IMG/VR virus record: IMGVR_UViG_2706794664_000002
DNA: 24,991 bases
Source: a virus
Taxonomy: Duplodnaviria; Heunggongvirae; Uroviricota; Caudoviricetes
Direction: 5' to 3' (one strand)
The position numbers and the translations under genes were made by a program. Shown in pieces: positions 466 to 23,110 of this stretch. Numbering within the stretch: position 1 is the first letter of the stretch; each line of letters starts with the position of its first letter. Under the pieces are notes generated by a model. The model saw only the letters and a list, made by a program, of their open reading frames with translations. It was not told the DNA's origin and ran no database searches.

Positions 466-567
466 ATGAAAATACAAAGCAAGCTAATTGTCTTATTAAA
501 CATTATTATTGCATTTATATTATTTGAGCTTTTAGCTCAAAAATTTGGTTTGAGTACATTATTTTAA
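466..567 (+). CDS. Hypothetical 33-aa hydrophobic peptide (MKIQSKLIVLLNIIIAFILFELLAQKFGLSTLF)
   Basis: ATG at 466 to TAA at 565-567, translated by hand; a single predicted transmembrane-like stretch. No clear Shine-Dalgarno, so it may be non-coding. Confidence 0.15.
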   Translation: MKIQSKLIVLLNIIIAFILFELLAQKFGLSTLF

Positions 568-716
568 AGCAAGATAAACAATATCGGGCACTCTAGTTTT
601 TATAATTAACAATTAAACGTCCATAAAATGTTATTTACTTTTCTTCGCTATTGTCATATCTTAATATAGTGGCTTACGCCACTCTACTTTCATCACATTT
701 TGTACGTTTATGTACT

Positions 717-746
717 CGCCATGAAGCTCTTTCATGGCGATTTTTT
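717..746 (+). terminator. Rho-independent terminator (9-bp stem CGCCATGAA / TTCATGGCG, 5-nt loop, T6 tract)
   Basis: Perfect inverted repeat 717-725 / 731-739 followed by TTTTTT at 741-746 on the plus strand. The minus-strand reading has no U tract, so it is unidirectional. Confidence 0.5.
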
Positions 747-832: not shown

Positions 833-1285
833 TTACCCTATAGGTGCTACTGGCCATTCAATATCCGGTGCAGTTGATGTATCAACACGGTTCAGCAACA
901 CCCGATACTTTTTCCAGGCTTCCAGCAACAAGGTTTCTTTCTCCGTTGCGATCTCCAGATCCACAGCATCCTGAAGCGGCGCTATATGCTCACTGGCTAC
1001 CTGCATCAGGCTGTTTTTTGTTTCTTCCGCCTCCCGGATCCGGAACAGTTTTTCTGCTTCCGTATCCTTCACCCAGGCTGTGCCGTTCCACTTCTGAAAC
1101 TCCCCTTCCGGGGATAACCAGGTGACATTTTCCGGTAATGAGCCGAGTTCAGAAATAAATAACGCGTCGCCGGAAGCCACGTCATAAACCGTTTTACCCC
1201 GATGATCTTCAACGAGATGCCACGATGTTTGCAGGCAGACCTGTATGAGGCGGAATATATGCGTCACCTTCACCAATAAATTCAT
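833..1285 (-). CDS. tfa: Tail fibre assembly protein Tfa, C-terminal domain ORF (150 codons from an internal ATG)
   Basis: Translation ...[28 protein letters not shown]...[22 protein letters not shown] matches the lambda Tfa C-terminal region; stop at 833-835. The lambda-like N-terminus lies in a different frame (see next feature). Confidence 0.75.
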
Positions 1286-1349
1286 TAGTTCCGGCCAGCA
1301 GGTTATAAATTTTTATGGTCCGTGCTTGTTCACTCATTCTGAATGCCAT
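1209..1349 (-). pseudogene. tfa: tfa N-terminal fragment (46 codons, [46 protein letters not shown]), out of frame with the C-terminal ORF
   Basis: Hand translation from the ATG at complement 1347-1349, which overlaps the stf stop as TAATG, reproduces the lambda Tfa N-terminus and then hits TGA at 1209-1211. About 20 codons present in lambda Tfa between PAN and SWHLV are absent, and the two halves differ by one frame. Confidence 0.5.
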
Positions 1350-4025
1350 TATGCGAGCCTCACAATATAGTTAAATGCGATGTTTTTGACGGTGTTTTCC
1401 GCGTTACCAGCAGCGTTAACGGTGATGGTGTGTCCATGTGAACCAATCGCAACAGAGTGCGTATGAGCACCAATACCGACAGTATGCGCGTGTGCACCCG
1501 CAGATGCTGCTGTGCCGGACAGTGAGTGTGTATGGTTTCCTTCTGAAGATGATTTACCTACCCATTGGGAGGTGCCACTGGTTAATGAGCCACTGATACC
1601 AACCTGATTAGTCCCGCTAACTTGAGTACTCCCTGCCGGAAACATTCCAGTAGGTTGACTCCCGCTATTCGTTCTGGGCCCAGTCTGACTATGTTGGTGG
1701 GCCCCAGCTGAACTTGTAGAGCCGCTCAGACTGTGCGTATGCGCCCCGGTGTTATTCGTGGATTTAGTGCCGTAATCAAACGACGATGTGGTTTTCGTCC
1801 CCAAATCCGTACTGGATGCGCTGGCGCTGTGGGTGTGCGATTTAATGCCATCCTGTTCCTGAGACAATACGGCACGACCACTGGCGGGCTTGCCCTTAAT
1901 CGTCCAGCCACGCATATCAGGGATCACGCCTGACGGATAAGCGGCTGCAAGTTTCGGGTAAGCAGATTTGTCAAAAGTCTGCCCCTGCATCAGGGCATAA
2001 CCAGACGGAACGGTATCTGATGGCCACGGGATTGGTGCACCGACTGGATAAAACTCTGCAGGAGGATGAGCCGAGGTGTAAAGCTGCGCCCACGGCGACC
2101 AGTTTGCGTCGGTCGTATCCCGTCGTGAACGAATAAATGCCGGAGCATGAGCACCGCTTGTACCACTCCAGCCGATGAGTAACTCACCTTCGCCAACGGC
2201 TGTCATCCCTTTCAGGTGAATGATATTTCCATACGCTGTTGGATATCCGTTGTTATACACCTCGTATAACTCAAGACCTGCTGCCCCCTGCGTATTGTCT
2301 GTCAGCGCGGCTACCCGACCTTTTGAAGCCAGATTAACTGATGATACTGCTGTTCCACCTGACGGTAGCGCCCCGATCTCTGATGCCGTTGGCTTATTTC
2401 TGGAGTTATAGTCCCTTCGCCAGCCAGGTGAATAATCTGTTCCGTGATTAATATAGGTAAACTGGGCGTTGGTTGTTCCGCCACCGCTGGATGTGGTCGG
2501 AGTGGTAATGCGGATCGTCATCGCTGACTTTATCCCCATTACTTCAATGACAGCTCCGGCGAGATGAATATTACCGCAGCCAGTATCAGTAATGATTTTA
2601 TTATTGCCATAAGACCAGGAACCCTTGCACATCCAGTATGGATGGTTAAATGCTCCCTGAGAATCCAGCCACTCGATAAACTGTGCAGTCGTCCAGTTTC
2701 CTGTTGTTGTGCTTACTGACCCACCGAAGGCACGGCAGGCACCAATATTTTTCGTAAAGGTGTCTTTGCCAGGGATATCCGCACCGTTCTGATCTTTCTG
2801 CAGACGTTTCTCAGCATTGTCATTGGCTGCTTTTACTGCCTTTGGCGTTGCCGCCAGCGTTTCAGACGTGCTGTTGGTCGCGCTGCTTAGCTGGATTATC
2901 CCTTTCTGTGCTGTCGTTGCATCCTGTGCGGTGTATTTCCCGTTAGCCAGGTCATACGCGGCCTTAACGGCTTTTGGTGTTGCCGCCAGTGACTCGGAAG
3001 TGCTGTTAGTCGCACTACTGAGCTGTACTATCCCCTTTTTCGTCGTGCTCGCATCCTCAAGCGCCACGGCGGATGCAATATCCTCTGCCCGTTTTGCCGC
3101 TGTCTCAGCGCGCGTTGCTGCAGATTCCGCCGTACTTTTGCTCTGAGCTGCTGCCGTCGCACTACCAGCAGCCTCTGTCGCCTTCGTGGATGCCGTCGTG
3201 GCGCTGCCCTTCGCTGCTGACGCCTGTCTGGTCGCCTCATCTTTTGAAGCAGACGCCGATGATGCCGATGACGCCGCCGAACTGGCGGACGATGCGGCAG
3301 CCGTTTTTGAGGATTCTNNNNNNNNNNNNNNNNNNNNNNNNNNNNNNNNNNNNNNNNNNNNNNNNNNNNNNNNNNNNNNNNNNNNNNNNNNNNNNNNNNN
3401 NNNNNNNNNNNNNNNNNNNNNNNNNNNNNNNNNNNNNNNNNNNNNNNNNNNNNNNNNNNNNNNNNNNNNNNNNNNNNNNNNNNNNNNNNNNNNNNNNNNN
3501 NNNNNNNNNNNNNNNNNNNNNNNNNNNNNNNNNNNNNNNNNNNNNNNNNNNNNNNNNNNNNNNNNNNNNNNNNNNNNNNNNNNNNNNNNNNNNNNNNNNN
3601 TGATTTCTTCGCGGCTGCCGTGTTCTGTGCCACCGCGGACGCGTTACGCGCCACCTCTTCCACCATCAGCTCAAAACGGCGCAGTGCCTCCGGACGGGCA
3701 TCATCCTCCGTCATGGCACCGAGAAAATCATTCAGNNNNNNNNNNNNNNNNNNNNNNNNNNNNNNNNNNNNNNNNNNNNNNNNNNNNNNNNNNNNNNNNN
3801 NNNNNNNNNNNNNNNNNNNNNNNNNNNNNNNNNNNNNNNNNNNNNNNNNNNNNNNNNNNNNNNNNNNNNNNNNNNNNNNNNNNNNNNNNNNNNNNNNNNN
3901 NNNNNNNNNNNNNNNNNNNNNNNNNNNNNNNNNNNNNNNNNNNNNNNNNNNNNNNNNNNNNNNNNNNNNNNNNNNNNNNNNNNNNNNNNNNNNNNNNNNN
4001 NNNNNNNNNNAATCTTTACTGCCAT
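1349..4025 (-). CDS. stf: Side tail fibre protein Stf (interrupted by N blocks 3318-3600 and 3736-4010)
   Basis: N-terminus MAVKI... at complement 4023-4025; internal [33 protein letters not shown]; C-terminal half with His-rich GAHxHS repeats ending [16 protein letters not shown] (stop 1349-1351). Frame changes across the N blocks, so the length is approximate. Confidence 0.85.
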
Positions 4026-4089: not shown

Positions 4090-4667
4090 TCAGAATTTAT
4101 AACCGACACCCACGATGAAACCGTCAGTGCGCCAGAGACGTGTTGCTGTGGCGACCGTCATCACTTCCGGTCAGCACATCGTGCGTTTTCCCCTTATTGT
4201 CAGTTACGCGGATATAATCCCCGGAAAAAGTCGACACACGGCTGTAAGCCACACCCACCATCGCATACGNNNNNNNNNNNNNNNNNNNNNNNNNNNNNNN
4301 NNNNNNNNNNNNNNNNNNNNNNNNNNNNNNNNNNNNNNNNNNNNNNNNNNNNNNNNNNNNNNNNNNNNNNNNNNNNNNNNNNNNNNNNNNNNNNNNNNNN
4401 NNNNNNNNNNNNNNNNNNNNNNNNNNNNNNNNNNNNNNNNNNNNNNNNNNNNNNNNNNNNNNNNNNNNNNNNNNNNNNNNNNNNNNNNNNNNNNNNNNNN
4501 NNNNNNNNNNNNNNNNNNNNNNNNNNNNNNNNNNNNNNNNNNNNGTTGGTCCGGGCATGAAGATACCCCGCGCTCAGCGTGGACTGATGTTCAGACGCCC
4601 ATGCAGGCGCACCGGATACGGCCAGGCAAATGGCTGCGGACAAAATGGCTGCACAAACTTTACGCAT
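4090..4667 (-). CDS. lom: Outer membrane protein Lom (Ail/Lom family beta-barrel), lysogenic-conversion moron; interrupted by N block 4270-4544
   Basis: N-terminus MRKVCAAILSAAICLAVSGAPAWASEHQSTLSAGYLHARTN (signal peptide) after a GAGG Shine-Dalgarno; C-terminus ...GFIVGVGYKF* with stop at 4090-4092. Confidence 0.85.
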
Positions 4668-4737: not shown

Positions 4738-7700
4738 TCAACGAATACTGATGCCGGAAGCCGCTTTTTTGGTCACAATCACCGTACAGTCGGTGATATT
4801 GCCTGCCCCCTGATTGCCTTTCTGGAAAATCTTAAACTCCAGAGTGACGCTACCACCACCACTAGGCATATCAATAACTGCACTGTAACTACCGGGAATG
4901 GCACCTTTAGTTTCTCTGGATGCGATTAATACGCCGTTTTTGCGAACTTCAAAACCATAACCCGTGTATCGCGTGCCTCCTGGGTTATTTCCGCTCCCCG
5001 GATCGTCATACGCTATACCGTTAAAAATAATGGGCGGAATAATAATCTGGCGGTCAAAGTTATGATCATCGCTTATGGTGACTGTAACCGTCCCGTTTGG
5101 TGTTTCCGTGTTACCCCACGTACCAGCCTGTTTCGGAAATGATTTGGATACAGCTTTAACGAAGTCACCTCTGACCTGAGTCGCCTCCAGCATGCCCTTA
5201 ATCGTACAGTTTTCATTTACCGTGACATTGTTGAGCGTCCCGGCGTTCGCATTCACACTGCCACTGATATCCGCATTTTTAGCGGTCAGCTTTCCGTCCG
5301 GAGTCAGGGAAAATGCCGATGGATTTCCACCGCTGGTAATGGTGGGGGCCGTCAGGCGTTTCAGGAACACGTCGTTCATGAATATCTGATCGCCCTGACC
5401 AACAAACATCGGTTTTGTGTTGCCATTCGCAGGATTAACCATCGCAATCCTGTCCGCCGCCAGCAGCACCTGACTCTGCATGCCGTCAGGGGTGTTCTCA
5501 ATACCGGCACCAATACCCGCGATATAAAGGCGTCCGTCCTGCATCTGCTGCAGCTTCACAGCCCACATGCTGTTCAGGTTATTATTTGTATCAACCTGAA
5601 CCTTCTGTATCTGCTGAATTGCCGCACTCTGGTCTTCCAGTTTCTTATTGACGGTCTGCGTGATTTCATTGCTGACATCCGTAATGGACGTCCTGATTTC
5701 AGCCAGGTCAGGCGCAAGCTGACCGTTATCAATCTGCGTCCACAGCTCCTGAGCCAGATGGGTTTTCCCTATCTCGCCTTTGAAAAAATCCAGATAACCG
5801 GATGCATCATCACTCGGCTGACCAACAGCCTCCACGAATGCCGATTTGCCAACGGTGTTCACACTGCGGATATAAAAGTAATAATCATGGCCCGGTTTGA
5901 TATTGATACTGGCGGCTATCCAGTACAGCGCCGTGCCAAGATAGCGTGCTGTGGTTTCAACCTGCCTGATATCCGCAATCCGCTTTTCCGAGAACCAGAA
6001 CTCAAACTGTACCGTCGGATCATAAACCGCAAGATGCGGCGTGGCGGTTATCTGAAAATAGCCCGGCGTCAGCTCAATCCGCGACAGCGCTGCCGGTGCG
6101 GCAATCCGGAACGATACCGACGCCGGATCGCCCTGCTGCCCCCACGCATTTACTGCCCGGACTGTCAGCCTGTAGTTCCCCAGCGCCAGTTGTGTGAAGC
6201 GGTAAGTGGTTTCCGTCGTCCGGGCCGTGCTGACCAGCCGCTCACTGCCGTCATCCGCTGTTACGGTCAGACGGAGCAGGAAGCTCACGCCCTTCACCAC
6301 CTTCGGCGTGTCCCAGCGCGCCAGCACCTGATATTCCCCGCTGTCTGCGGTGACTTCGGCAGTCAGGTGCTGCACCGCTGGCGGCGTGACACCATTCACC
6401 GTGCCGCTCTGGTCGCCGTCAAAGTGCGCCCCGTTATCCACGATGGCTTCTTTTTCCGGCACATGCTGCACGGCGGTGATGGCATACGTGCCGTCGTCGT
6501 TCTCACGGATACTCACGCAGCGGAACAATCGCTGGTGCAGCGTCGGCAGCTTCAGCCCCCACACGCTGTATTCAGCAACACCGTCAGGAACACGGCTCAC
6601 TTTTACCTTCACGCCGTCGGTGACGGACTGGACCTCCACGCTGACCGGATTCCCCTGCCCGTNNNNNNNNNNNNNNNNNNNNNNNNNNNNNNNNNNNNNN
6701 NNNNNNNNNNNNNNNNNNNNNNNNNNNNNNNNNNNNNNNNNNNNNNNNNNNNNNNNNNNNNNNNNNNNNNNNNNNNNNNNNNNNNNNNNNNNNNNNNNNN
6801 NNNNNNNNNNNNNNNNNNNNNNNNNNNNNNNNNNNNNNNNNNNNNNNNNNNNNNNNNNNNNNNNNNNNNNNNNNNNNNNNNNNNNNNNNNNNNNNNNNNN
6901 NNNNNNNNNNNNNNNNNNNNNNNNNNNNNNGCCCCCGGCTGGTACAGCCAAAGGCATCCATCTTCGTGACGTTACGACCGTAACGGACAATGGCCTGCGT
7001 ATCCTCCACAAGCTCTGTCGCCGTCTCCCAGCCGTTATCCGGGTCAATCCAGTTCACCTCAACGGCATTATGGCGGTCTTTCAGGGCGCTGAAACTGTAG
7101 CGGAACGGCGCGCCATCATCCGGCATCACCACATTACTGCGGTTATAGGCCCACACCTTATCCGACTGTCGGTCCTGCACGAACGTCAGCGTCTGCCCGT
7201 TCCATACCGGCATACAGCGCATCGCCGAGCAGAAATCACTGAGCACATCCCACGCCTTGCGCTGTGTGGTCAGCCAGGCATTACAGGTGATGCGCGGCTC
7301 CGTGCTGCCAAAGCCGTCCGGCACCGACTGGTCACAGTACTGGCCGATGACATACAGCGCCCATTTATCCACATCTGCCGCACCAAGACGTTTCCCCATG
7401 CCATAGCGCGGATGGGTCAGCATATCCCACAGACACCAGGCCATGTTGTTGCTGTATGCCGGTTTTAACGTTCCGTCCCAGATACCGCTGTATTGCCGCG
7501 TCTGCGGATTATAGTTCGACGGCACCTGCAGAATGCGCCCGCGAAGATGATAATTACGGCTCACCTGCTGGCTGCCGAACTGCTCCGAATCCACCTGTAC
7601 GCCGACCAGTGCCGTGTTCGGGTAGCACTGTTTCACATCGATGATTTCGGTGTATGACGACCAGAGCGTTTTGTTCTGCAGCTGGTCTGTGGTGCTGTCC

Positions 7701-8257
7701 GGCGTCATTCTGCGCATCCGGATATTAAACGGGCGCGGCGGCAGGTTATCCACCACCACCGAGGCCAGATACTGCGAGGTGGTTTTGCCCTTAATGGTGA
7801 TGTCTTTTTCCGTCACCCAGCCACCGTTACGCTGTATCTGAACCAGCAGGCGAACTTCAGACGGATTCCTGTCTCCCTTTGAGGTGGTTTCCACCAGTGC
7901 CTGTACACCGAAGGTAAAACGCAGTCGGTCAATGTTTGCCGACGTGATGGTCCGGGTGATCGGCGTGTCATATTTCACTTCCGTACCCAGCACCGTCTCG
8001 GAGCCGGAGGATTCAAATCCCTCCGGCGGTGACTGCTCCTGCTCACCTGCCCGGAACACCACCGTGACGCCGGAGATGTTGGTATTCCCCTCACTGTCCA
8101 GCACCGGCGTACTGTTCAGCAGCACGCTTTTTAATCCATCCACCGGACCTTCAACCGGCCCTTCGCTGATGGCATCGATCACACTCAGCAGCTGCGTGGA
8201 CTTCAGGTTGTCCTTCGCTTCGCGCGGGGTATGCCCCTTACTGCTGCCTTTACCCAT
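4738..8257 (-). CDS. J: Tail tip / central tail fibre host-specificity protein J (N block 6663-6930 inside)
   Basis: N-terminus [54 protein letters not shown] is lambda J; long ORF continues to the stop at 4738-4740. Two track ORFs (6584-8257, 4738-7047) join across the N block. Confidence 0.92.
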
Positions 8258-8317
8258 TCGTCATGCTCCATAAACGATAAAACCGCCCGGAGGCGATTTC
8301 ACATAAAACATTTTGCA

Positions 8318-8989
8318 TCAGCGACCAATCACCACAACCTGACCACCGTCCCCTTCGTCTGCCGTGCTGATCTCCTGAGATACCACACGTGACCCCACGC
8401 GCATTTCACCATACAGAACAGGCATAACATTGCCCTGGGCAACCATGTTATCCAGTGAGGAGAAATAGATGTTCTGCTTACCGTTATCCGTTGTCTGTGT
8501 GCGGGGAGTTCTGGCTTTCGGTGCCAGCATCTGAGCCACACCGCCGAGCACCATACTGGCACCGAGAGAAAACAGAATGCCGGTCATACCACCGGCACCA
8601 ATGGCAGCCCCCCATGCTGCAAGGGTGGCTCCGGCGGTAAAGAATGATCCGGCAATGGCGGCTGCTCCCAGGACAATCTGGAATACACCACCTGACTTGG
8701 CCCCGGCGACTCTGGGAACAATATGAATCACAGCGCCGTCAGGCAGAGCCTCATGTAACTGCGCCGTTAATCCGGACGTGCTAACATCCTGCCCGGCAAT
8801 ACGCACCTGATACCAGCCGTCGCTCAGCTTCTGACGAAACGCAGGGAGCTGTGTGGCCATCGCCCGGATGGCTTCGGCACCCGTTTTCACACGAAGGTCG
8901 ATGCGGCGGCCAAATCGTTGCAAATCCCCGTAAAGGCAGATGCGTGCCATGCCCGGTGACGCCAGAGGGAGTGTGTGCGTCGCTGCCAT
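8318..8989 (-). CDS. I: Tail tip assembly protein I
   Basis: 223-aa ORF MAATHTLPLASPGMARICLYGDLQRF... with a Gly/Ala-rich hydrophobic C-terminal half; overlaps the 3' end of K as in lambda. Confidence 0.9.
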   Translation of the reverse strand: MAATHTLPLASPGMARICLYGDLQRFGRRIDLRVKTGAEAIRAMATQLPAFRQKLSDGWYQVRIAGQDVSTSGLTAQLHEALPDGAVIHIVPRVAGAKSGGVFQIVLGAAAIAGSFFTAGATLAAWGAAIGAGGMTGILFSLGASMVLGGVAQMLAPKARTPRTQTTDNGKQNIYFSSLDNMVAQGNVMPVLYGEMRVGSRVVSQEISTADEGDGGQVVVIGR

Positions 8990-9677
8990 TTGTCGGTATA
9001 CCTCTCTCGTTTGCTCAGTTGTTCAGGAATATGGTGCAGCAGCTCGCCGTCACCACAGTAAATGGCGGCATGATTCGGCACCGATGAACCAAAACAGCAC
9101 AGCAGCACATCGCCCGGCTGCGCCGCTGACAACGGCACCTGATACAGCCCTGTGGCCTCCAGATTATCCAGATAGAGATTCTGACCGTGACGCCACCAGT
9201 CATCCTCACGATGAAAATCCGGCATCTCAATCCCCGCCAGATGGTAAGCATCCCGGAACNNNNNNNNNNNNNNNNNNNNNNNNNNNNNNNNNNNNNNNNN
9301 NNNNNNNNNNNNNNNNNNNNNNNNNNNNNNNNNNNNNNNNNNNNNNNNNNNNNNNNNNNNNNNNNNNNNNNNNNNNNNNNNNNNNNNNNNNNNNNNNNNN
9401 NNNNNNNNNNNNNNNNNNNNNNNNNNNNNNNNNNNNNNNNNNNNNNNNNNNNNNNNNNNNNNNNNNNNNNNNNNNNNNNNNNNNNNNNNNNNNNNNNNNN
9501 NNNNNNNNNNNNNNNNNNNNNNNNNNNNNNNNNNNNNNNNNNNNNNNCCGGCTCACCGGAGATATTCACGCAGGGGAAATATCTTTCCCCCTCCGGCGTT
9601 CTTACCACGAAGCCGCACGACTCCGCTGGAGCACATCGCCGGGCGTGCGCCAGAATCGCTGATTCTGTCTCTGTCAT
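8887..9677 (-). CDS. K: Tail tip assembly protein K (MPN/JAB-like N-terminal part plus NlpC/P60-like C-terminal part); N block 9260-9547 inside
   Basis: N-terminal ORF MTETESAILAHARRCAPAESCGFVV... and C-terminal ORF ...PGDVLLCCFGSSVPNHAAIYCGDGELLHHIPEQLSKRERYT... (Cys/His catalytic motifs) flank the N block; stop at 8887-8889. Confidence 0.88.
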
Positions 9678-9682
9678 GGGAT

Positions 9683-10381
9683 TTACTGCGAAAGTTTGTT
9701 AATGGAAAGGAAGCCGCCAAAGTTGCCGACGTTATTGCGAAACTTACAGCCACTCAGGCATTTGCTGCATTTATCCTTCGTGATGTCGGACGTTGGCTGG
9801 TCATATTCATCCGCGACCGCCGGACCGTGATAACCGCACTCATCGCCGCGATAGGTCCAGGTGCAGGTGTTGGCCAGCATGATACGTCCCGGAAAAACAG
9901 CGCCATCTGTTTCCGTCGGCGTGGACAGTACAAAAGAGGCACTCACCGCGCTCAGTTCGCTGCACTGCTCAATGCGCCAGCGGCTGATCACCTCCTGCTC
10001 CGGATCGGCGTCACTGTTTCCGTTGACGAAGTTCACCGCATCCAGAAAACGGGCGTAAACCTTACGCCGGACCACCGTTCCGCCGACCAGACTCTGTAGA
10101 TCTTCCGCCATCCCGGTGACCATACCGTACAGGTTAGAAACCATCAGCGTGGGGCGCGTACTGGTGCCTTTGCCATTCAGTTCAAAACCACTCCCCTGAA
10201 TGGGATACGGCTGATACTGTCGCCCCTGCCAGGTGACCGGCTCACCTTTTTCGTTCTGCTCATTACAGAAAAAATAACGTTCTCCACCGACCTCTGTCAG
10301 ATCGATTTCCCAGAGCACCACGCTGGCCGACTGCTCCGCACGGGTGCATTCATTCAGTGTTTCCTGCCGGATATCCTGCAT
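9683..10381 (-). CDS. L: Minor tail protein L
   Basis: 232-aa ORF MQDIRQETLNECTRAEQSASVVLWEIDLTEVGGERYFFC...FGGFLSINKLSQ; start overlaps the M stop (ATGA). Confidence 0.92.
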   Translation of the reverse strand: MQDIRQETLNECTRAEQSASVVLWEIDLTEVGGERYFFCNEQNEKGEPVTWQGRQYQPYPIQGSGFELNGKGTSTRPTLMVSNLYGMVTGMAEDLQSLVGGTVVRRKVYARFLDAVNFVNGNSDADPEQEVISRWRIEQCSELSAVSASFVLSTPTETDGAVFPGRIMLANTCTWTYRGDECGYHGPAVADEYDQPTSDITKDKCSKCLSGCKFRNNVGNFGGFLSINKLSQ

Positions 10382-10710: not shown

Positions 10711-13221
10711 CGTCCACCTCCGGAGAACAGGCCACCATCACGCATCTGTGTCTGAATTTCATCACGGGCACCCTTGCGGGCCATGTCATACACGGCCTTC
10801 ATCATCTGTGGACCTGGCAGACCATTCGTACCGTCGTTCTGAATCACCACGTGATTGTTCTGATTAAAATTAATGCCTTCAGCCCGCCGCATCTGCGCCG
10901 GACTTCCGGCACCGCCCACATAACCACCTTCCGCATAGCCGCGCATCAGCCGGTAGAGATTCCCCACGCCAATCCGGCTGGTTGCCTCCTTCGTGAAGAC
11001 AAATTCACCACGGTGAACAATCCCCGCTGGCTCATATTTGCCGCCGGTTCCCGTAAATCCCCCGGTTGCAAAATGGAATTTCGCCGCAGCGGCCTGAATG
11101 GCTGTACCACCTGACGCGGATGCGCCGCCACCAACAGCCCCGCCANNNNNNNNNNNNNNNNNNNNNNNNNNNNNNNNNNNNNNNNNNNNNNNNNNNNNNN
11201 NNNNNNNNNNNNNNNNNNNNNNNNNNNNNNNNNNNNNNNNNNNNNNNNNNNNNNNNNNNNNNNNNNNNNNNNNNNNNNNNNNNNNNNNNNNNNNNNNNNN
11301 NNNNNNNNNNNNNNNNNNNNNNNNNNNNNNNNNNNNNNNNNNNNNNNNNNNNNNNNNNNNNNNNNNNNNNNNNNNNNNNNNNNNNNNNNNNNNNNNNNNN
11401 NNCCAGAGGATTATCGCCATACTGTTCCTTCAGGCGCTGTTCCGTGGCTTCCCGCGCTGCCTGCCGGTCAGTCAGCCCCCGGTTTTTCGCATCAATGGCT
11501 GCCCGTTTTGCCCGTTGCTGCTGTGCGAATTTATCCGCCTGCTGCGCCAGCGCATTCAGGTGCTCCTGATACGTAACCTTGTCACCAAGTGCAGCCAGCT
11601 GGCGTTTGTACTCCAGCGTCTCGTCTTTATGCGCCAGCAGGGATTTCTCCTGTGCGGACAGCTGGCGACGTTGTGCCGCCTCCTCCAGTACCGCGAACTG
11701 ACTTTCTGCCTTCCACAAATCCCGGCGCTGCTGGCTGATTTTCTCATTCGCTCCGGCATGCTTCTCCAGCGTCCGGAGTTCTGCCTGAAGCGTCAGCAGG
11801 GCCGCATGAGCACTGTCTTCCTGACGATCGCCCGCATACACCTTCACGCCGGACTGTTTCGGCTTTTTCAGCGTCGCTTCATAATCCTTTTTCGCCGCCG
11901 CCATCAGCGTGTTGTAATCTGCCTGCAGGATTTTTCCGTCTTTCAGTGCCTTGTTCAGTTCTTCCTGACGGGCGGTATATTTCTCCAGCGGCGTCTGCAG
12001 CCGTTCGTAAGCCTTCTGCGCCTCTTCGGTATATTTCAGCCGTGACGCTTCGGTATCGCTCTGCTGCTGCGCATTTTTGTCCTGTTGACGCTGTTGATCT
12101 ACCCTCTTTTGGGCTGCATCCCGCTCCAGGCGTTTTTTTTCACGATCATCCCAGTAACGCGCCCGTGCTTCATCGTTAACGAAATAATCATCCTTGCGCA
12201 GATTCCAGATGTCGTCTGCTTTCTTAAACGCAGCCTCTGCCTTAATCAGCATCTCCTGCGCGGTATCAGGACGACCAATATCCAGCACCGCATCCCACAT
12301 GGATTTGAATGCACGTGCAGTCCTGTCTGCCCAGGTCTCCAGCGTGCCCATGTTCTCTTTCAGGCGGCGGGTCTGGTCATCAAACCCTTTCGTTGCGGCC
12401 TCGTTCGCCGCCTGCAATGCCCCGGCTTCATCGCCGGAACGCTGCAACTGAGCAACATACGCAATCTGCTCCGCCGTCACGTTATGGAACTGGCGTGCCA
12501 TCGCCGTCAGCCCCGACGTCGGGTCTGTGGTCAGCTTCCCGAAGGCTTCAGCGACCTTGTCCACCTCCACGCCGGATGCAGAGGAGAAACGCGCCACACT
12601 CTGGCTGATGGACGCAATCTGAGCCTCACCGCTTACCCCCGCCTTAACCAGTGCGCTGAGTGACTCGCTGGTCTGGTTAAACGTCAGCCCTGCCGCCTGC
12701 CCGGCTCTGGACAGGACCAGCATACGATCTGCCGTCAGTCCCGCCTGATTACCGGAAAGGACCAGCGTTTTGTTGAAATCGGACAGGGTTGAGTTGCCCT
12801 GATACCAGGCATACGCCAGCGCACCGGTCGCCACCGCCAGCGAGGTGGCCCCCACCATCGGCAGGGTGATCGCGCCGGCAAGCCCCCTGAACATGGGGAT
12901 CATCCCGCCGAAGGAGTCCTTAACCTGACCACCCTGTTGCAGCAGGATCAGCCAGGGATTCTGCCCCCCTGCAAGCTGCGTGGCCACGTCGGTGAACTGT
13001 GCAGGCAGCATACGCATGGCGGCTTTATACTGCCCGACGGAAATCCCCGCTTTCTGTGCAGCCAGCGCCTGTCGGCTCAGCGACTGTTCAACGACTGCCG
13101 CTGTTTTTTTCGCATCACTTTCCGTACCGGAAAAATGACGCCTGACTCTGGCCATCTGCTCGTCAAATCTGGCCGCATCCAGACTCAAATCAACGACCAG
13201 ATCGCCTACCGGTTCAGCCAT
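10707..13221 (-). CDS. H: Tail tape measure protein H (N block 11146-11402 inside)
   Basis: N-terminus MAEPVGDLVVDLSLDAARFDEQMARVRRHFSGTESDAKK..., long coiled-coil-like Ala/Gln/Lys/Arg-rich body, C-terminal ...GGYVGGAGSPAQMRRAEGINFNQ...GGLFSGGGR*. Confidence 0.92.
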
Positions 13222-14052
13222 ACCGGACTCCTCCTGCGATCCCTTCTGATACTGTCATCAGCATTACGTCATCCTCCGTCATGTCCGCCACATCCGGGGA
13301 AGCGGGGATAACTTCATTCCCGTCCGGGCCAAAGCGGACACCTCCGGCAAGCCCTGCCGCTTTCTGCATCAGCACATCATCTTCAGGCTCTTCGTCAGCC
13401 TCGCGCCGGTTCAGCAGACTGAAATCCAGCGGATGCATCTCCGGATCGCTGAAAAACAGGCTGAGCACGGTGTACGTCAGCCCGGAAAAGTGCATATCCA
13501 GCAGAACATCATGAAAATAATGGGTACTGTAAAAGCGGTGCCAGTCGGCATACTCCGTGGATGACATCCCGGCAAGCATGGCGCGCCAGTCGGGTCGCCC
13601 CATCTCACGCGCCAGTTTCAGGGCAAAACTCAGCTCACCGTCGAACACTTTCCCGCAGAAACAGGCTCTGCAGGCCCGGCGTCCTCTGCCTGTTCAGGAG
13701 CATCATTCACCACAAACTCATACATACCGGACAGCCGGTACACCACGTTTTCAGCATGAGAAATTGCCTCTGTGGGCCAGGTGGTAAGCACTTCCTGCTC
13801 AATCTGTTTAACGGCTTCATTCATGGACGGCATCTGCGTCTTCTTCGGATGGTTATGCCACAGGGACATCGCAACCACAAAAGCGCCGGTTCTGATGGCG
13901 TCTTCCACAGTAAACTTCCGGTTGCTGTCTGACTCCGCCTGTTCTGCCTGCCGTTTCATCAGGTCGAGATGCTCAATACGCTGCAGGGCTGACAGTTCAG
14001 AAAGCGTGACGGTCACACCGTTATGTTCAAATGATTCGGTTTTCAGGAACAT
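13214..14052 (-). CDS. T: Tail assembly chaperone G-T fusion, made by a programmed -1 ribosomal frameshift near the 3' end of G
   Basis: T-frame ORF (13214-13648, ...MSSTEYADWHRFYSTHYFHDVLLDMHF...) overlaps the end of G in the -1 frame; slippery heptamer GGGAAAG on the minus strand at 13648-13654. Confidence 0.8.
13630..14052 (-). CDS. G: Tail assembly chaperone G
   Basis: 140-aa ORF MFLKTESFEHNGVTVTLSELSALQRIEHLDLMKRQAEQAE...; stop at 13630-13632, six codons after the slippery site. Confidence 0.9.
   Translation of the reverse strand: MFLKTESFEHNGVTVTLSELSALQRIEHLDLMKRQAEQAESDSNRKFTVEDAIRTGAFVVAMSLWHNHPKKTQMPSMNEAVKQIEQEVLTTWPTEAISHAENVVYRLSGMYEFVVNDAPEQAEDAGPAEPVSAGKCSTVS
13648..13654 (-). 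promoter_or_regulatory. Slippery heptamer G GGA AAG for the G-T -1 frameshift
   Basis: Plus strand CTTTCCC at 13648-13654 is GGGAAAG on the coding strand, positioned where the G and T frames overlap. Confidence 0.75.
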
Positions 14053-14067
14053 CGCTGACTCTCCGGA

Positions 14068-14808
14068 TTAACTGGCGGTGACGTTGATTTCTGCAACCGC
14101 AGCAAACTCACCATTACCAGATACGACCGGAATGTTGACCTTGCCTGCAGCAACACCTTTCACGGTGATGGTCATACCACTGACCGACACGGTGGCTTTT
14201 GTTTTATCCGCAGACACCGCACGGAAGCTCTTGTCGGTTGCGCCATCCGGCTGGAATGCCACGGTCAGCGTGGTGCTCTGCCCTTTCACTACGGAAGCAC
14301 TGGCGGGTGTCACCGTCATGCCGGTCGTCGCCGTCACCGTGCTGCGATCTTCTGCCATCGACGGACGTCCCACATTGGTGACCTTCACCGTGCGGGTAAT
14401 CACCTCCTTCGCCGTCACCGCCTTACCGATACTGCTGACCCAGCCACGGAACACATCGACCGTGCCGTTCGGGAAGCGGATTTTATAGGCACGGGTATCA
14501 CCTTCATTAAACCACGCCAGCAGCGCCTGCTGCCCCTGCTCTCCGGGCATCCACGCCAGCGTGAAGCTGGTATCTCCGGCAGATTTCTGCCCCTGCCCGG
14601 TCGCAGTCCAGTCTGCATCTTCATCATCGAGATAGCTGTCGTCATAGGACTCAGCGGTCAGTTCGCCGGGCGTCAGGTCTTTAACTTTTGCCAGACGCGA
14701 CCAGTCAACGTCTGAAAGCGGGTTCGCATAAGGGTCACCGCTCCCCTTATAAACCCACAGGGTGGTCCCGGCACCTTTCACCGGCATTGTAGGATTTGGT
14801 ACAGGCAT
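14068..14808 (-). CDS. V: Major tail tube protein V (with C-terminal Ig-like domain)
   Basis: 246-aa protein from [36 protein letters not shown]...; the track ORF starts 10 codons upstream at 14838, but the lambda-like start is at 14808. Confidence 0.92.
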
Positions 14809-14815
14809 AGCGTCC

Positions 14816-15211
14816 TCACATTTCATAGATAATGACATAAGTCAGATCGGCTGAACTCCACAGGCCCGCATCATCGTCGCGCCGGTAGTCATAGCCGCTG
14901 GCCACCATACTGGTGATCAAATCTGACAGTGCCGGGATATCGCTCATCACCGGATAAATCCGGGACTCCATCCACGAATCCAGCTCTGAATCCGGCACCT
15001 GAGCAGGCAGGAAAACTTCAATATGCAGCTCCGCCTGCCAGGTATCGCTGTCCAGCTCTTCGCCCGTGTATTCAGCGCCGGTGAGATAAACGGCAATTGC
15101 CGGAAAATCTTCCTCATCAAAAACAGCGGGGCGACCATCAAAAAGCGTCGCCCCGGTGTCATGCTTCTCCAGTGCATCCAGTACGGCTGCACGGAGTTCA
15201 GTATGTTTCAT
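14816..15211 (-). CDS. U: Tail tube terminator protein U
   Basis: 131-aa [57 protein letters not shown]... Confidence 0.92.
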
Positions 15212-15823
15212 CGCTTTATTACCATTCTCAGTTGATGCTGCAGCGCATAGCCCAGCTCTTTCGGAAGACGTTCACGCCGTATCCGTTCAATATTCTGTTT
15301 AAACGCCGTGGTCAGCGGCACCGCCATCGGGATTTTCACCACATCAATGGGGTAACGGTTTTTCCCGGCCACACGCTGCATAACATGCCACCGGCCGTTT
15401 TTCAGTTGCTGAATAAACGCGCCGGGAATACGACGGTTACCCACCANNNNNNNNNNNNNNNNNNNNNNNNNNNNNNNNNNNNNNNNNNNNNNNNNNNNNN
15501 NNNNNNNNNNNNNNNNNNNNNNNNNNNNNNNNNNNNNNNNNNNNNNNNNNNNNNNNNNNNNNNNNNNNNNNNNNNNNNNNNNNNNNNNNNNNNNNNNNNN
15601 NNNNNNNNNNNNNNNNNNNNNNNNNNNNNNNNNNNNNNNNNNNNNNNNNNNNNNNNNNNNNNNNNNNNNNNNNNNNNNNNNNNNNNNNNNNNNNNNNNNN
15701 NNNNNNNNNNNNNNNNNNNNNNNNNNNNACGCGGTTAATGGCCATTGCGGCGGCACCGGGCACCGCCGTTTTGCTGATACGGCTGAGGTTTTCAACGGCC
15801 TGCTCAAGACCTTTTATGGCCAT
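15208..15823 (-). CDS. Z: Tail completion protein Z (N block 15447-15728 inside)
   Basis: N-terminus MAIKGLEQAVENLSRISKTAVPGAAAMAINR and C-terminus ...VGNRRIPGAFIQQLKNGRWHVMQRVAGKNRYPIDVVKIPMA...RMVIKR* flank the N block. Confidence 0.88.
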
Positions 15824-15834
15824 ACATCCCCCTT

Positions 15835-16188
15835 TCAGCGGCGACGGTTAACGGCAGGCGGTACGCCCCGTCCAAGCCAGAGATGACAACTTCCGCCATC
15901 ATCCGGCGAAACCCGATCTACCCAGAAATTTTCCTCACCGATGGTCAGCGTGTCTCCACGCCGCAGCTGCCGCACCTCATCAGTCCGGACAAACAGGGAC
16001 GGGCTGGAGCCTTCAACGCGCACGCCCTGTCCGGCATAGCTGATATTTTCAGGGTCATCAAAAACACCACGTATCACCGCACCTGACTGCTCACCGGATG
16101 TCATGGTGGCTGACGTTCCCATGTACCCGCGTATCGTTTCATCGGCGCGGGCAATGGCAGCATCGAACAGGTTATCGAAATCAGCCAC
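15835..16188 (-). CDS. FII: Head-tail joining protein FII
   Basis: 117-aa ORF MADFDNLFDAAIARADETIRGYMGTSATMTSGEQSGAVIRGVFDDPENISYAGQGVRVEGSSP... Confidence 0.9.
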   Translation of the reverse strand: MADFDNLFDAAIARADETIRGYMGTSATMTSGEQSGAVIRGVFDDPENISYAGQGVRVEGSSPSLFVRTDEVRQLRRGDTLTIGEENFWVDRVSPDDGGSCHLWLGRGVPPAVNRRR

Positions 16189-16199
16189 AGCGCCTCCCG

Positions 16200-16598
16200 T
16201 TATTGCATTCTGGCCAGGCCGCGCTCTGTCATTTCGGCTGCCACACCGGCAGAGACACGAAACGCCGTTCCCGGCAGCACAAATGCCACAGGTTTATCCC
16301 GCGTGGCGTGAAGTGCATCAGTATGCAGCGTCACCAGTGCCACGACCGTGACCAGTTCAGCCGTATCCTGAATCACGGTATCCGGCTGCGCTGATACCAC
16401 CTCATTTTCATGCCCGGTCAGCACATTTTCCCGGCTGAGAGGGGTGTCCTGACCGGCAGTTTCATCCGTGTCATCAAGCTCTTCTTCCAGCTCTGCCACA
16501 CGAAGCGCCAGTTCTTCTTTCGTTCCCGTCAAACTGACATCGCGGTTCAATTGCTCACCCAGCTCCTGAAGACGGGCAATCAGTTCATCTTTCGTCAT
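16200..16598 (-). CDS. FI: DNA packaging protein FI
   Basis: 132-aa protein from MTKDELIARLQELGEQLNRDVSLTGTKEELALRVAELEEELDD...; the track ORF begins 13 codons upstream, but the lambda-like start is at 16598. Confidence 0.88.
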   Translation of the reverse strand: MTKDELIARLQELGEQLNRDVSLTGTKEELALRVAELEEELDDTDETAGQDTPLSRENVLTGHENEVVSAQPDTVIQDTAELVTVVALVTLHTDALHATRDKPVAFVLPGTAFRVSAGVAAEMTERGLARMQ

Positions 16599-16639
16599 GA
16601 ACTCCTCCACAGAGAGAAAATGGCCCCGAAGGGCCATGA

Positions 16640-17665
16640 TTACGCCAGTTGAACGGACACGAACTCATCAGGATCAGCCAGCAGCATCAGCGGTGCTGAC
16701 TGAATCATGGTGAACTCACGCGCCGGATCGCCGGTGGTCACCCAGTTTTTCGGGTAACGGGCAGAGGCGTTAATGCCTTCGCGCTGTGCGTCCGCATCCT
16801 GAATGCAGCCATAGGTGCGCAGACCGCGAGCCTGAGTGTTCCCCAGCACCATCGTGTTGTCCGGCAGGAAGTTCTTTTTGACGCCGTTTTCCACGTACTG
16901 TCCGGAATACACGACGATGGCCACATCGCCATACATTCCCTTATAGGACACCGCTTTGCCCAGGTCTTTTACCGCTGTCTCCAGCTCGGAATGAGAGCCG
17001 CGACGGGTATCCAGCTTCTCCTTGACGGCTTTGAAGGAACGGAACAGCGCCCAGCCTTTCGGGTCAAACACGATGATATTCACCACACCGCTGGCGTTCA
17101 GCGCGTAGGCTTCGATATCGTCGGTCGGGTCATACGTGGACTTGTCACGCTTGCTCCACTCCGTGACGCCGGACTGTGTGATGTTGTTCGCCGCACTGCG
17201 GCCCATATCCACCTCAACCGGATCGAAGGCTTCACCGGTCATGGTGTATTTGCCCTTGAGCACGGCAGAAACTGCCTGCATCTCTTCGACCTGAGCAATG
17301 GCCAGCTCTTCGTCACGCATGTTCTGCATGATGATGCGACGGCGGCGGTAAGCCGGGTCCGCCAGATTCTGCGGATCTTCATCCGGCAGGCGACGCAGGG
17401 TCATCTGCGGATTCACCTCATGCTTGGGTTTGACATATCCCGGCGTAAATTCAGAGGTGGAGCCGCCACGGGAACGGATAACCTCACCGGAAACAATCGG
17501 CGAAACGTACAGCGCCATGTTTACCAGTCCCGGAATTTGTGAGAGATAGACTTTCTCCGTAGTGAAGGGATAGCTCTCACGGAAAAAGAGACGCAGAAAC
17601 AGCGGATCAAACTTAAATTTCTGCTCATTTGCCGCCAGCAGCTGGGCGGTTGTGTACATCGACAT
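16640..17665 (-). CDS. E: Major capsid protein E
   Basis: 341-aa protein from MSMYTTAQLLAANEQKFKFDPLFLRLFFRESYPFTTEKVYLSQIPGLVNMALYVSPIVSGEV... to ...DPDEFVSVQLA*. Confidence 0.93.
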   Translation of the reverse strand: MSMYTTAQLLAANEQKFKFDPLFLRLFFRESYPFTTEKVYLSQIPGLVNMALYVSPIVSGEVIRSRGGSTSEFTPGYVKPKHEVNPQMTLRRLPDEDPQNLADPAYRRRRIIMQNMRDEELAIAQVEEMQAVSAVLKGKYTMTGEAFDPVEVDMGRSAANNITQSGVTEWSKRDKSTYDPTDDIEAYALNASGVVNIIVFDPKGWALFRSFKAVKEKLDTRRGSHSELETAVKDLGKAVSYKGMYGDVAIVVYSGQYVENGVKKNFLPDNTMVLGNTQARGLRTYGCIQDADAQREGINASARYPKNWVTTGDPAREFTMIQSAPLMLLADPDEFVSVQLA

Positions 17666-18061: not shown

Positions 18062-18681
18062 CTTACACTGGTGTGTTCAGCAAATCGTTAACGGCATCAG
18101 ATGCCGGGTTACCTGCAGCCAGCGGTGCCGGTGCCNNNNNNNNNNNNNNNNNNNNNNNNNNNNNNNNNNNNNNNNNNNNNNNNNNNNNNNNNNNNNNNNN
18201 NNNNNNNNNNNNNNNNNNNNNNNNNNNNNNNNNNNNNNNNNNNNNNNNNNNNNNNNNNNNNNNNNNNNNNNNNNNNNNNNNNNNNNNNNNNNNNNNNNNN
18301 NNNNNNNNNNNNNNNNNNNNNNNNNNNNNNNNNNNNNNNNNNNNNNNNNNNNNNNNNNNNNNNNNNNNNNNNNNNNNNNNNNNNNNNNNNCTCCGTCGCT
18401 TGCACCACGCCAGTAACGTCAGCCTGCGAAGCAGTGGCTGAAACAGTTGTTGATTGAGTCTCTTTGGTCATTCGCCCTCCTGAGAGACGGGATTTACGTG
18501 CATCCAGTGCATCACGCATGACGGTGATCGCATCGGTACTGTTAACAAGTTCATCAGCCAGTCCGGCATCAATGGCCTCCTGACCGCTGTACACTGCAGC
18601 CTCGGTATCCAGCACAGCCTGCACGGACAGGCCGGTATATGCCGACACCTTCTGTGCAAACATCCGGCGGGTTGCATCCAT
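18062..18681 (-). CDS. nu3: Scaffolding protein Nu3 (in-frame internal start within C, sharing its C-terminus)
   Basis: Internal Met at C residue 239 ([19 protein letters not shown]...), which corresponds to the lambda Nu3 start as I recall it. A second in-frame Met at 18469-18471 has a strong AGGAGG Shine-Dalgarno, so the true start is uncertain. Confidence 0.5.
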
Positions 18682-19395: not shown

Positions 19396-20985
19396 TCTTC
19401 TCCTCCTCTGTTGATTGTCGCAGCCCGGATTCAAATGCCGCAGCCGCCCAGGCGGGCGGTTTAAGACCAGCTGCGCGGCGCTCCATCGTTTCACGGACCT
19501 GCTGGGCAAAAATTTCCTGATAGTCGTCACCGCGTTTCGCGCACTCTTTCTCGTAGGTGCTCAGTCCGGCTTCTATCAGCATCACCGCTTCCTGAACTTC
19601 TTTCAGACCATCGATGGCCATACGACCGGAGCCTATCCAGTCGCAGTTCCCCCAGGCACTGCGGGCTTCCTGAAAGCTGAAGCGCGCTTTTGAAGGTAAC
19701 GTCACCACGCGGCGAACGATGGCCTCTTCCAGCCAGCACAGAAACATCTGGCTCGCCTGACGGGATGCGACGAATTTTCGCCGCCCCATAAAGTACGCCC
19801 ACGACTCGTTCGCACTGGCCCGTGCCGTGGAGTAGCTCATCTGGGCGTAATTCCGGGAAAGTTGCTCATACGAGACACCCAGCCCGGCAGCGATATACCG
19901 CAACAGTGACTGCTCAAACACGGAGTAGCCGTTATCCGTGTCCTGAGCCGTCTGCAGGTTCAGTGAGTCCCCCGGCATCAGGTGCGGCACTTTTGCGCCT
20001 CCCAGACGGACCGGTGCTGCGGCGTAATACGCGGCAATTTCACCAATCCAGCCCGTCAGCCTTTCCCGCTGCTCCTTACTGTTCGCGCCCAGAATAAAAT
20101 CCATCGCTGACTGCGTATCCAGCTCACTTTCAATGGTGGCGGCATACATCGCCTTCACAATGGCGCTCTGCAGCTGCGTGTTCTGCAGCGTGTCGAGCAT
20201 CTTCATCTGCTCCATTACGCTGTAAAACACATTTGCACCGCGGGTCTGCCCGTCCTCCACGGGTTCAAAAACGTGAATGAACGAGGCGCGCCCGCCGGGT
20301 AACTCACGGGGTATCCATGTCCATTTCTGCGGCATCCAGCCAGGATAGCCGTCCTCGCTGACGTAATATCCCAGCGCCGCACCGCTGTCATTAATCTGCA
20401 CACCGGCACGGCAGTTCCGGCTGTCGCCGGTATTGTTCGGGTTGCTGATGCGCTTCGGGCTGACCATCCGGAACTGTGTCCGGAAAAGCCGCGACGAACT
20501 GGTATCCCAGGTGGCCTGAACGAACAGTTCACCGTTAAAGGCGTGCATGGCCACACCTTCCCGAATCATCATGGTAAACGTGCGTTTTCGCTCAACGTCA
20601 ATGCAGCAGCAGTCATCCTCGGCAAACTCTTTCCATGCCGCTTCAACCTCGCGGGAAAAGGCACGGGCGTCTTCCTCCCCGATGCCCAGATAGCGCCAGC
20701 TTGGGCGATGACTGAGCCGGAAAAAAGACCCGACGATATGATCCTGATGCAGCTGGATGGCGTTGGCAGCATAGCCGTTATTGCGTACCAGATCGTCTGC
20801 GCGGGCATTGCCACGGGTAAANNNNNNNNNNNNNNNNNNNNNNNNNNNNNNNNNNNNNNNNNNNNNNNNNNNNNNNNNNNNNNNNNNNNNNNNNNNNNNN
20901 NNNNNNNNNNNNNNNNNNNNNNNNNNNNNNNNNNNNNNNNNNNNNNNNNNNNNNNNNNNNNNNNNNNNNNNNNNNNNNNNNNNNN
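19376..20985 (-). CDS. B: Portal protein B (N-terminal ~50 codons fall in N block 20822-21081; start coordinate approximate)
   Basis: Readable sequence from ...FTRGNARADDLVRNNGYAANAIQLHQDH... through ...MMIREGVAMHAFNGELFVQATWDTSSSRLFRTQFRMVSPKRISNPNN... to ...[12 protein letters not shown]; stop at 19376-19378. Confidence 0.88.
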
Positions 20986-20990
20986 NNNNN

Positions 20991-23110
<2,120 letters not shown>

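Follow-up and report, generated by a model that had tools for sequence, protein, structure and literature searches.

A 65-nt deletion splits tfa, the tail fiber assembly gene of a Shigella sonnei prophage, and probably leaves it a clonally inherited pseudogene

We analyzed a 24,991-nt stretch of prophage DNA (the window), which is Shigella sonnei draft contig CWSV01000055.1 of assembly GCA_001255555.1, and found that its tail fiber assembly gene, tfa, is divided between two reading frames by a 65-nt deletion. Very probably this tfa is a pseudogene that has been inherited clonally within a degrading prophage, and its loss would leave stf without a cognate chaperone. The lesion disrupts the frame when compared with intact orthologues of this locus, and it is independent of any single assembly. 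The original prediction, made from the window sequence, had offered three readings of the split: a pseudogene, a C-terminal product made on its own, or a +1 shift that joins the frames. Our results favor the first, because the out-of-frame deletion is real, is found in one clone, and lies in a prophage with other marks of decay.

RESULTS

The tfa remnant occupies two reading frames

The gene order J-lom-stf-tfa in the window is colinear with that of lambda-like phages, and tfa lies directly 3′ of stf. On the minus strand, the 3′ end of stf reads ...AGG CTC GCA TAA, and its stop codon (TAA, 1351-1349) overlaps the tfa start codon (ATG, 1349-1347) as TAATG. From this start codon runs an ORF of 46 codons (1349-1209, minus strand), which consists of 41 lambda-like Tfa codons followed by the residues IVASR and then a TGA at 1211-1209. 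In the +1 frame, no stop intervenes between 1312 and a TAA at 835-833. This frame has its first ATG at 1285, carries Tfa sequence from 1225 on, and encodes Tfa from S64 to the C-terminal end. Translation and inspection of the minus strand confirmed all the coordinates that the original prediction had given for the 46-codon N terminus, the TAATG overlap, and the TGA at 1209-1211, as well as its placement of the C-terminal Tfa sequence in the other frame, with the first ATG at 1285 and the stop at 833. The features at this locus are as follows.

1227-1349, minus strand: native tfa codons 1-41, with the start coupled to stf via the TAATG overlap
1226-1227, minus strand: deletion junction with CA microhomology, where 65 nt present in intact alleles are gone
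1209-1226, minus strand: out-of-frame tail IVASR and premature TGA (1211-1209), the end of the N-terminal remnant ORF
833-1225, minus strand: tfa codons 64-193 and TAA (835-833) in the +1 frame, with the whole Pfam Caudo_TAP match inside
833-1285, minus strand: 150-codon ORF from the internal ATG at 1285, comprising 20 out-of-frame residues and then Tfa 64-193
1349-3067, minus strand: 3′ part of stf, the ORF being visible in the draft contig as far as an assembly gap

The product of the 150-codon ORF, which some pipelines annotate as "tail fiber assembly protein," matches Caudo_TAP (PF02413) with E = 2.3e-44 over profile positions 1-130 of 131. For the 46-aa remnant, precomputed annotation gives a weak match to PF28596 (Caudo_TAP_N). 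The local Pfam copy returned no PF28596 match even for the intact homologue P0031, and NCBIfam has no model of the N-terminal module. Of roughly 61 residues in that module, 41 are left in the S. sonnei tfa. An intact Tfa is a single ORF of ~190-205 codons that carries both Caudo_TAP_N and Caudo_TAP; here, the gene is split.

A single 65-nt deletion accounts for the split

Alignment to lambda tfa (J02459 21973-22557), the check proposed with the original prediction, and to intact E. coli alleles revealed one 65-nt gap, with ~95-98% identity elsewhere. When left-aligned, the lost bases are lambda J02459 22095-22159, or tfa nt 123-187, and they encode Tfa residues 42-63 (22 codons) less one base. 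The earlier estimate that roughly 20 codons were missing and that the loss was not a multiple of three was therefore correct. Since 65 nt is not a multiple of three, the rest of tfa is shifted into the +1 frame. The split is read straight from the sequence and does not rest on statistics. The sequence across the deletion junction is GCAAACATCGTGG, and the endpoints share just a 2-nt CA microhomology. A deletion between the AACAGT direct repeats of intact alleles was also considered and rejected; it would remove 57 nt in frame, and the real endpoints share CA alone.

The lesion is present in independent assemblies

We asked how far the quality of the contig bears on this result. The window is a gapped draft, and its ten N runs have lengths unlike those of the finished sequence, which could favor the view that the frame break is an assembly or sequencing artifact of a low-quality draft. 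The N runs are scaffold gaps that do not keep length; 283 N, for instance, stand for 725 nt of HE616528.1. They lie at the following positions, and none of them touches tfa.

3318-3600, 3736-4010, 4270-4544, 6663-6930, and 9260-9547: N runs (first five), scaffold gaps
11146-11402, 15447-15728, 18136-18390, 20822-21081, and 21655-21916: N runs (last five), scaffold gaps

Outside the N runs, the window is 100% identical over ~11 kb to HE616528.1, a 4.99-Mb chromosome that we take to be S. sonnei 53G. The tfa junction is likewise 100% identical in HE616528.1 and in five other independent assemblies. The deletion allele is also carried by a second assembly of >1 Mb, and dozens of independently assembled drafts from several submitters share the identical junction, which is found in three IMG/VR contigs as well. 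The exact 46-aa product occurs on 109 contigs and the exact 150-aa product on 104, both under the name Shigella sonnei. Furthermore, a loss of 65 nt is untypical of read-level errors. Because the same junction recurs in independent assemblies, an artifact of assembly is excluded, and we regard the chance that the break stems from any kind of draft error as negligible.

We weighed the possibility that apparent frame changes in A, B, Z, H, K, J, and stf mark extra pseudogenes and rejected it, as all of these changes coincide with N runs of the wrong length; H, K, J, and stf, together with M, L, and I, are intact ORFs in HE616528.1. We note a separate feature of CXEK01000105.1 (~3260 onward in the fetched locus), in which the tfa remnant is joined via a single N, after ...TTTCAGAAG, to an unrelated Phage_fiber_2 gene. 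This join is most likely the result of scaffolding between two prophages rather than a real recombinant.

The deletion appears restricted to one clonal lineage

Judged by the sequences compared, the tfa deletion appears to be restricted to a single clonal lineage, S. sonnei. Every S. sonnei assembly retrieved has the deletion, and all the junction copies compared (six assemblies) are base-identical and represent one clone. An earlier 81-nt junction query could not tell one-piece from two-piece matches in E. coli genomes. The searches reported here used a 44-nt junction probe that extends 22 nt to either side and is therefore unable to seed on intact alleles, and this probe gave no match in 5,426 complete E. 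coli genomes and none in 50,697 phage records. Scans for the exact junction pattern found none in metagenome contigs and just 3 contigs in IMG/VR; the corresponding scan of species-representative genomes gave 0 matches, a result that is uninformative if that collection has no S. sonnei. A similar tfa is present in 5,210 of the 5,426 complete E. coli genomes, and among the matches listed for E. coli genomes, the extra 65 nt are present in every best match to the window.

At the protein level, a search with the conceptually repaired Tfa as the query yielded 1770 homologues at a cutoff of E ≤ 1e-20. Full-length homologues among the matches listed are single ORFs of ~190-205 aa with Caudo_TAP_N and Caudo_TAP, and the closest homologue among the matches listed is an intact E. 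coli Tfa that is 98% identical to the repaired protein. In a 33-sequence alignment, Tfa residues 1-63 are among the most conserved in the family, and most of residues 42-63, the segment lost in S. sonnei, are invariant or at least 90% conserved.

The original prediction had called for a comparison with other tfa alleles and had named a conserved, expressed two-frame allele as one finding that would overturn it. In this comparison, the intact homologues listed outside S. sonnei are all single-frame, and the two-frame arrangement is not conserved among diverged homologues in the E. coli genomes and phage records searched. The junction is identical in >100 assemblies, which formally fits a conserved allele, but this identity is that of clonal descent, with zero variation. 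Because the two-frame allele is shared only within a zero-variation clone, its persistence reflects descent, not selection.

A functional C-terminal product is improbable

The second reading holds that the C-terminal fragment is translated and keeps some chaperone activity, which would leave stf serviceable. Candidate starts for such a fragment are the ATG at 1285 (150 aa), a GTG at 1273 or 1267, and re-initiation at a GTG at 1180 after the TGA. Between 1312 and 835, the +1 frame is free of stops and has ATG, GTG, and TTG codons, and the ORF contains a full Caudo_TAP domain. Lambda Tfa 62-192 is reported to be modeled on the whole of Mu Tfa by HHpred (PMC7291167), and a helical hairpin predicted with confidence at residues 118-175 is untouched by the deletion. 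It also counts against the pseudogene reading that the C-terminal ORF keeps its complete Caudo_TAP match, retains nearly the whole of this 62-192 region, and shows no further decay. However, inspection of the 20 nt upstream of the internal starts revealed no good Shine-Dalgarno sequence, the best being GGA. Elongating ribosomes would occlude the starts at 1267-1285, since these fall within the 46-codon ORF that is translated. Native tfa expression needs coupling to stf, which now feeds the dead-end frame. A C-terminal product would also be without the strongly conserved residues 1-63, and initiation at the GTG at 1180 would drop residues 64-78 in addition. Finally, among the genomes and phage records searched, the two-frame arrangement was seen in one clone alone. 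On balance, we consider a serviceable C-terminal product improbable, although from the sequence a truncated Tfa with residual activity is conceivable.

Slimmer still is the chance that the locus encodes a split or minimized Tfa, in which residues 64-193, alone or with the 46-residue N-peptide in trans, would still assemble Stf. If this were true, the conserved lambda-type N-terminal module would be dispensable or separable. An AlphaFold2 model of the intact homologue P0031, built from a shallow alignment (33 sequences, ≥77% identity), has pLDDT values of <50 for residues 1-58, and residues 42-63 likewise mostly fall there.

The locus has none of the usual supports for a +1 frameshift

The third reading invokes a programmed +1 shift, either close to AAC-A-UCG or, in the manner of prfB, at the UGA, that would yield a fused Tfa minus 22 residues. 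The two frames overlap for 34 codons (1312-1211), and one event anywhere in this interval would join them; an event at 1227-1225 would join native to native sequence. By inspection, however, the overlap contains no codon suited to P-site re-pairing (AAC-A would give ACA, GCA-A would give CAA, and CGU-U before the UGA would give GUU), and the Shine-Dalgarno-like stimulator that prfB has 3 nt upstream of its stop is absent. The sole purine-rich Shine-Dalgarno-like stretch, GGTGAAGGTGA (~1274-1264), precedes the junction by at least ~35 nt and the stop by ~50 nt. Transcriptional slippage would require a longer run of A or T than is present, the longest being A5. Since the split was made by a deletion seen in one clone only, recoding signals could not have evolved for it, and the fused product would still be without nearly invariant residues. 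The shift at AAC-A-UCG in the original prediction is thus unsupported, in that there is no slippery codon, no stimulator, and no conservation of the arrangement outside the clone, and we give recoding of any kind at this site next to no credence.

Other marks of decay in the prophage

Over the span from Nu1 to tfa, the window shares ~96% identity with lambda-like phages and is colinear with their late region. A tblastn comparison with 23 late proteins of phage PhiR42_1 located internal frameshifts outside assembly gaps in just two genes, tfa and lom. J (1165 aa) and stf (1027 aa) are uninterrupted in HE616528.1, with stf at 6854-9937 of the fetched locus. The other features of note in the window are the lom lesion and the insertion sequence ends at the two contig boundaries.

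4093-4667, minus strand: lom pseudogene, with 83 nt deleted out of frame between two direct repeats of CTGGCG
1-83, no strand: IS1 end, ~750 nt downstream of tfa, at a contig boundary
24915-24991, no strand: IS2 end, ~1.26 kb upstream of Nu1, at the other contig boundary

The lom gene lies between J and stf, and its deletion takes ~26 codons near the 3′ end. The deletion junction is at 4136/4135 (sequence ACGTCTCTGGCGCAC), with the retained repeat at 4135-4130 and a new stop at 4126-4124. HE616528.1 has the same lesion, and lom is called there as 160 aa versus 199 aa in intact copies.

At the Nu1 end of the window, the IS2 insertion lies close to where related phages have a gnsB-like gene, and the Nu1 protein is common to tens of thousands of E. 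coli contigs. At the tfa end, 280 complete E. coli genomes share an identical IS1-prophage junction at the lambda attachment locus, beside ybhB-bioA; the IS1 insertion is therefore older than the S. sonnei lesions. In HE616528.1, the bio-side flank of E. coli can be followed in synteny only as far as an IS remnant (13515, within 11971-16900 of the fetched locus), past which are a phage-type integrase, a formate/nitrite-transporter-family gene, and mlaA. An AraC-family gene beside IS1 is split in this chromosome into calls of 167 aa and 58 aa, and 191 nt beside IS1 are gone. This indicates an IS-mediated rearrangement in HE616528.1 that parts the prophage from its attR side.

Taken together, the lom deletion, the split AraC-family gene, the IS elements, and the lost attR-side synteny indicate that the S. 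sonnei prophage is degrading and probably locked in place. Apart from lom and tfa, the late genes from Nu1 to J are free of internal frameshifts outside assembly gaps, and to judge from these genes, the prophage is not grossly wrecked.

In the AT-rich spacer between IS1 and tfa, we also observed a 33-codon, very hydrophobic ORF (466-567, plus strand; MKIQSKLIVLLNIIIAFILFELLAQKFGLSTLF) that is convergent to tfa. It might be a small membrane peptide or a toxin-like moron, or nothing. A hairpin is located at 523-541 (plus strand), and a strong terminator-like hairpin with a T run is located at 716-740 (plus strand).

DISCUSSION

Proposed origin and consequences of the tfa lesion

We propose the following account of the tfa pseudogene. 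One spontaneous deletion of 65 nt would have taken codons 42-63, minus a single base, out of a lambda-type tfa; the lambda-like prophage that carries this gene lies at the lambda attachment locus, at its bio-proximal end. This deletion presumably arose in an ancestor of the sampled S. sonnei genomes and was then inherited clonally. Ribosomes that enter tfa by coupling at the stf stop (TAATG) would make a 46-residue peptide and end at the TGA at 1211-1209. Because the frame fed by this coupling stops after 46 codons, full-length Tfa would no longer be made. Tfa is known to help Stf trimer assembly, and the side fibers are non-essential (PMC7291167); in chaperones of the Tfa type, the fiber tip is bound by the N-terminal domain, and conserved C-terminal helices trimerize (PMC9608196). 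The intact stf of 1027 codons would then be left without its cognate chaperone, and any virions still produced would probably have no side tail fibers and would rely on J alone. Such fiber-less particles are expected from the loss of full-length Tfa unless a tfa paralogue of another prophage complements in trans, which it might.

The S. sonnei tfa is an ordinary pseudogene of an already known type, and it represents no new kind of system or mechanism. It adds one more case of gene decay in Shigella prophages and raises no new mechanistic question. The result bears directly on annotation: some database gene calls span the whole tfa remnant, and others list the halves as separate proteins. The deposited S. 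sonnei 150-aa "tail fiber assembly protein" and 46-aa "phage tail protein" are best regarded as the halves of one pseudogene and should be re-annotated. In addition, the tfa junction, which is in no complete E. coli genome searched, and the lom deletion can serve as simple lineage markers.

Comparison with known systems

The closest reference is lambda tfa itself (orf-194, J02459 21973-22557), which is the same gene in the same position, with the same TAATG overlap and a Caudo_TAP domain and with ~95% nucleotide identity outside the deletion. Compared to lambda tfa, the S. sonnei allele is without 22095-22159 and is split into two frames, and it has one codon fewer close to its 3′ end (193 versus 194 aa). 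The prophage of E. coli 104 and 13P477T (tfa WP_001317842.1), the two examined among the 280 complete genomes described above, has the same IS1 junction near ybhB-bioA and a tfa that is ~96% identical. Unlike S. sonnei, both strains have an intact tfa (193 aa) and an intact lom (199 aa).

Small deletions are also found in other tfa alleles. The E. coli Tfa variants P0113, P0106, P0087, P0138, P0145, and P0150 have internal deletions in otherwise 92-97% identical genes. These deletions are in frame and at different positions, in one-sequence clusters with 1-10 contigs each, whereas the S. sonnei deletion is out of frame. In P0113, residues 42-57 are gone, and the left endpoint, after GLPAN, is the same as that of the S. 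sonnei deletion. In prophages, small deletions thus seem to strike tfa often.

A more distant relative is the Mu tail fiber assembly protein U (5YVQ chain B), which has a homologous C-terminal helical region: its residues 112-174 align with lambda Tfa 126-191 (E = 8e-9). At its N terminus, lambda-type Tfa carries ~61 additional residues, a module not modeled on Mu Tfa (PMC7291167). The S. sonnei deletion removes the end of this module and its junction with the rest of Tfa.

The nearest parallel in outcome is lambda PaPa, in which stf is frameshifted (orf-401/orf-314) relative to Ur-lambda and the particles are fiber-less and rely on J (PMC7291167, PMC3945230, and the annotation of HK630). In both cases, a frame-breaking lesion lies in the non-essential side-tail-fiber module, and by analogy the same outcome would be expected in S. 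sonnei. The two differ in that the chaperone gene rather than the fiber gene was struck, by a 65-nt deletion rather than a single-base change, and in a natural pathogen lineage. The S. sonnei tfa can be seen as a naturally occurring parallel to the lesion of laboratory lambda PaPa, one in which the chaperone is disabled instead of the fiber.
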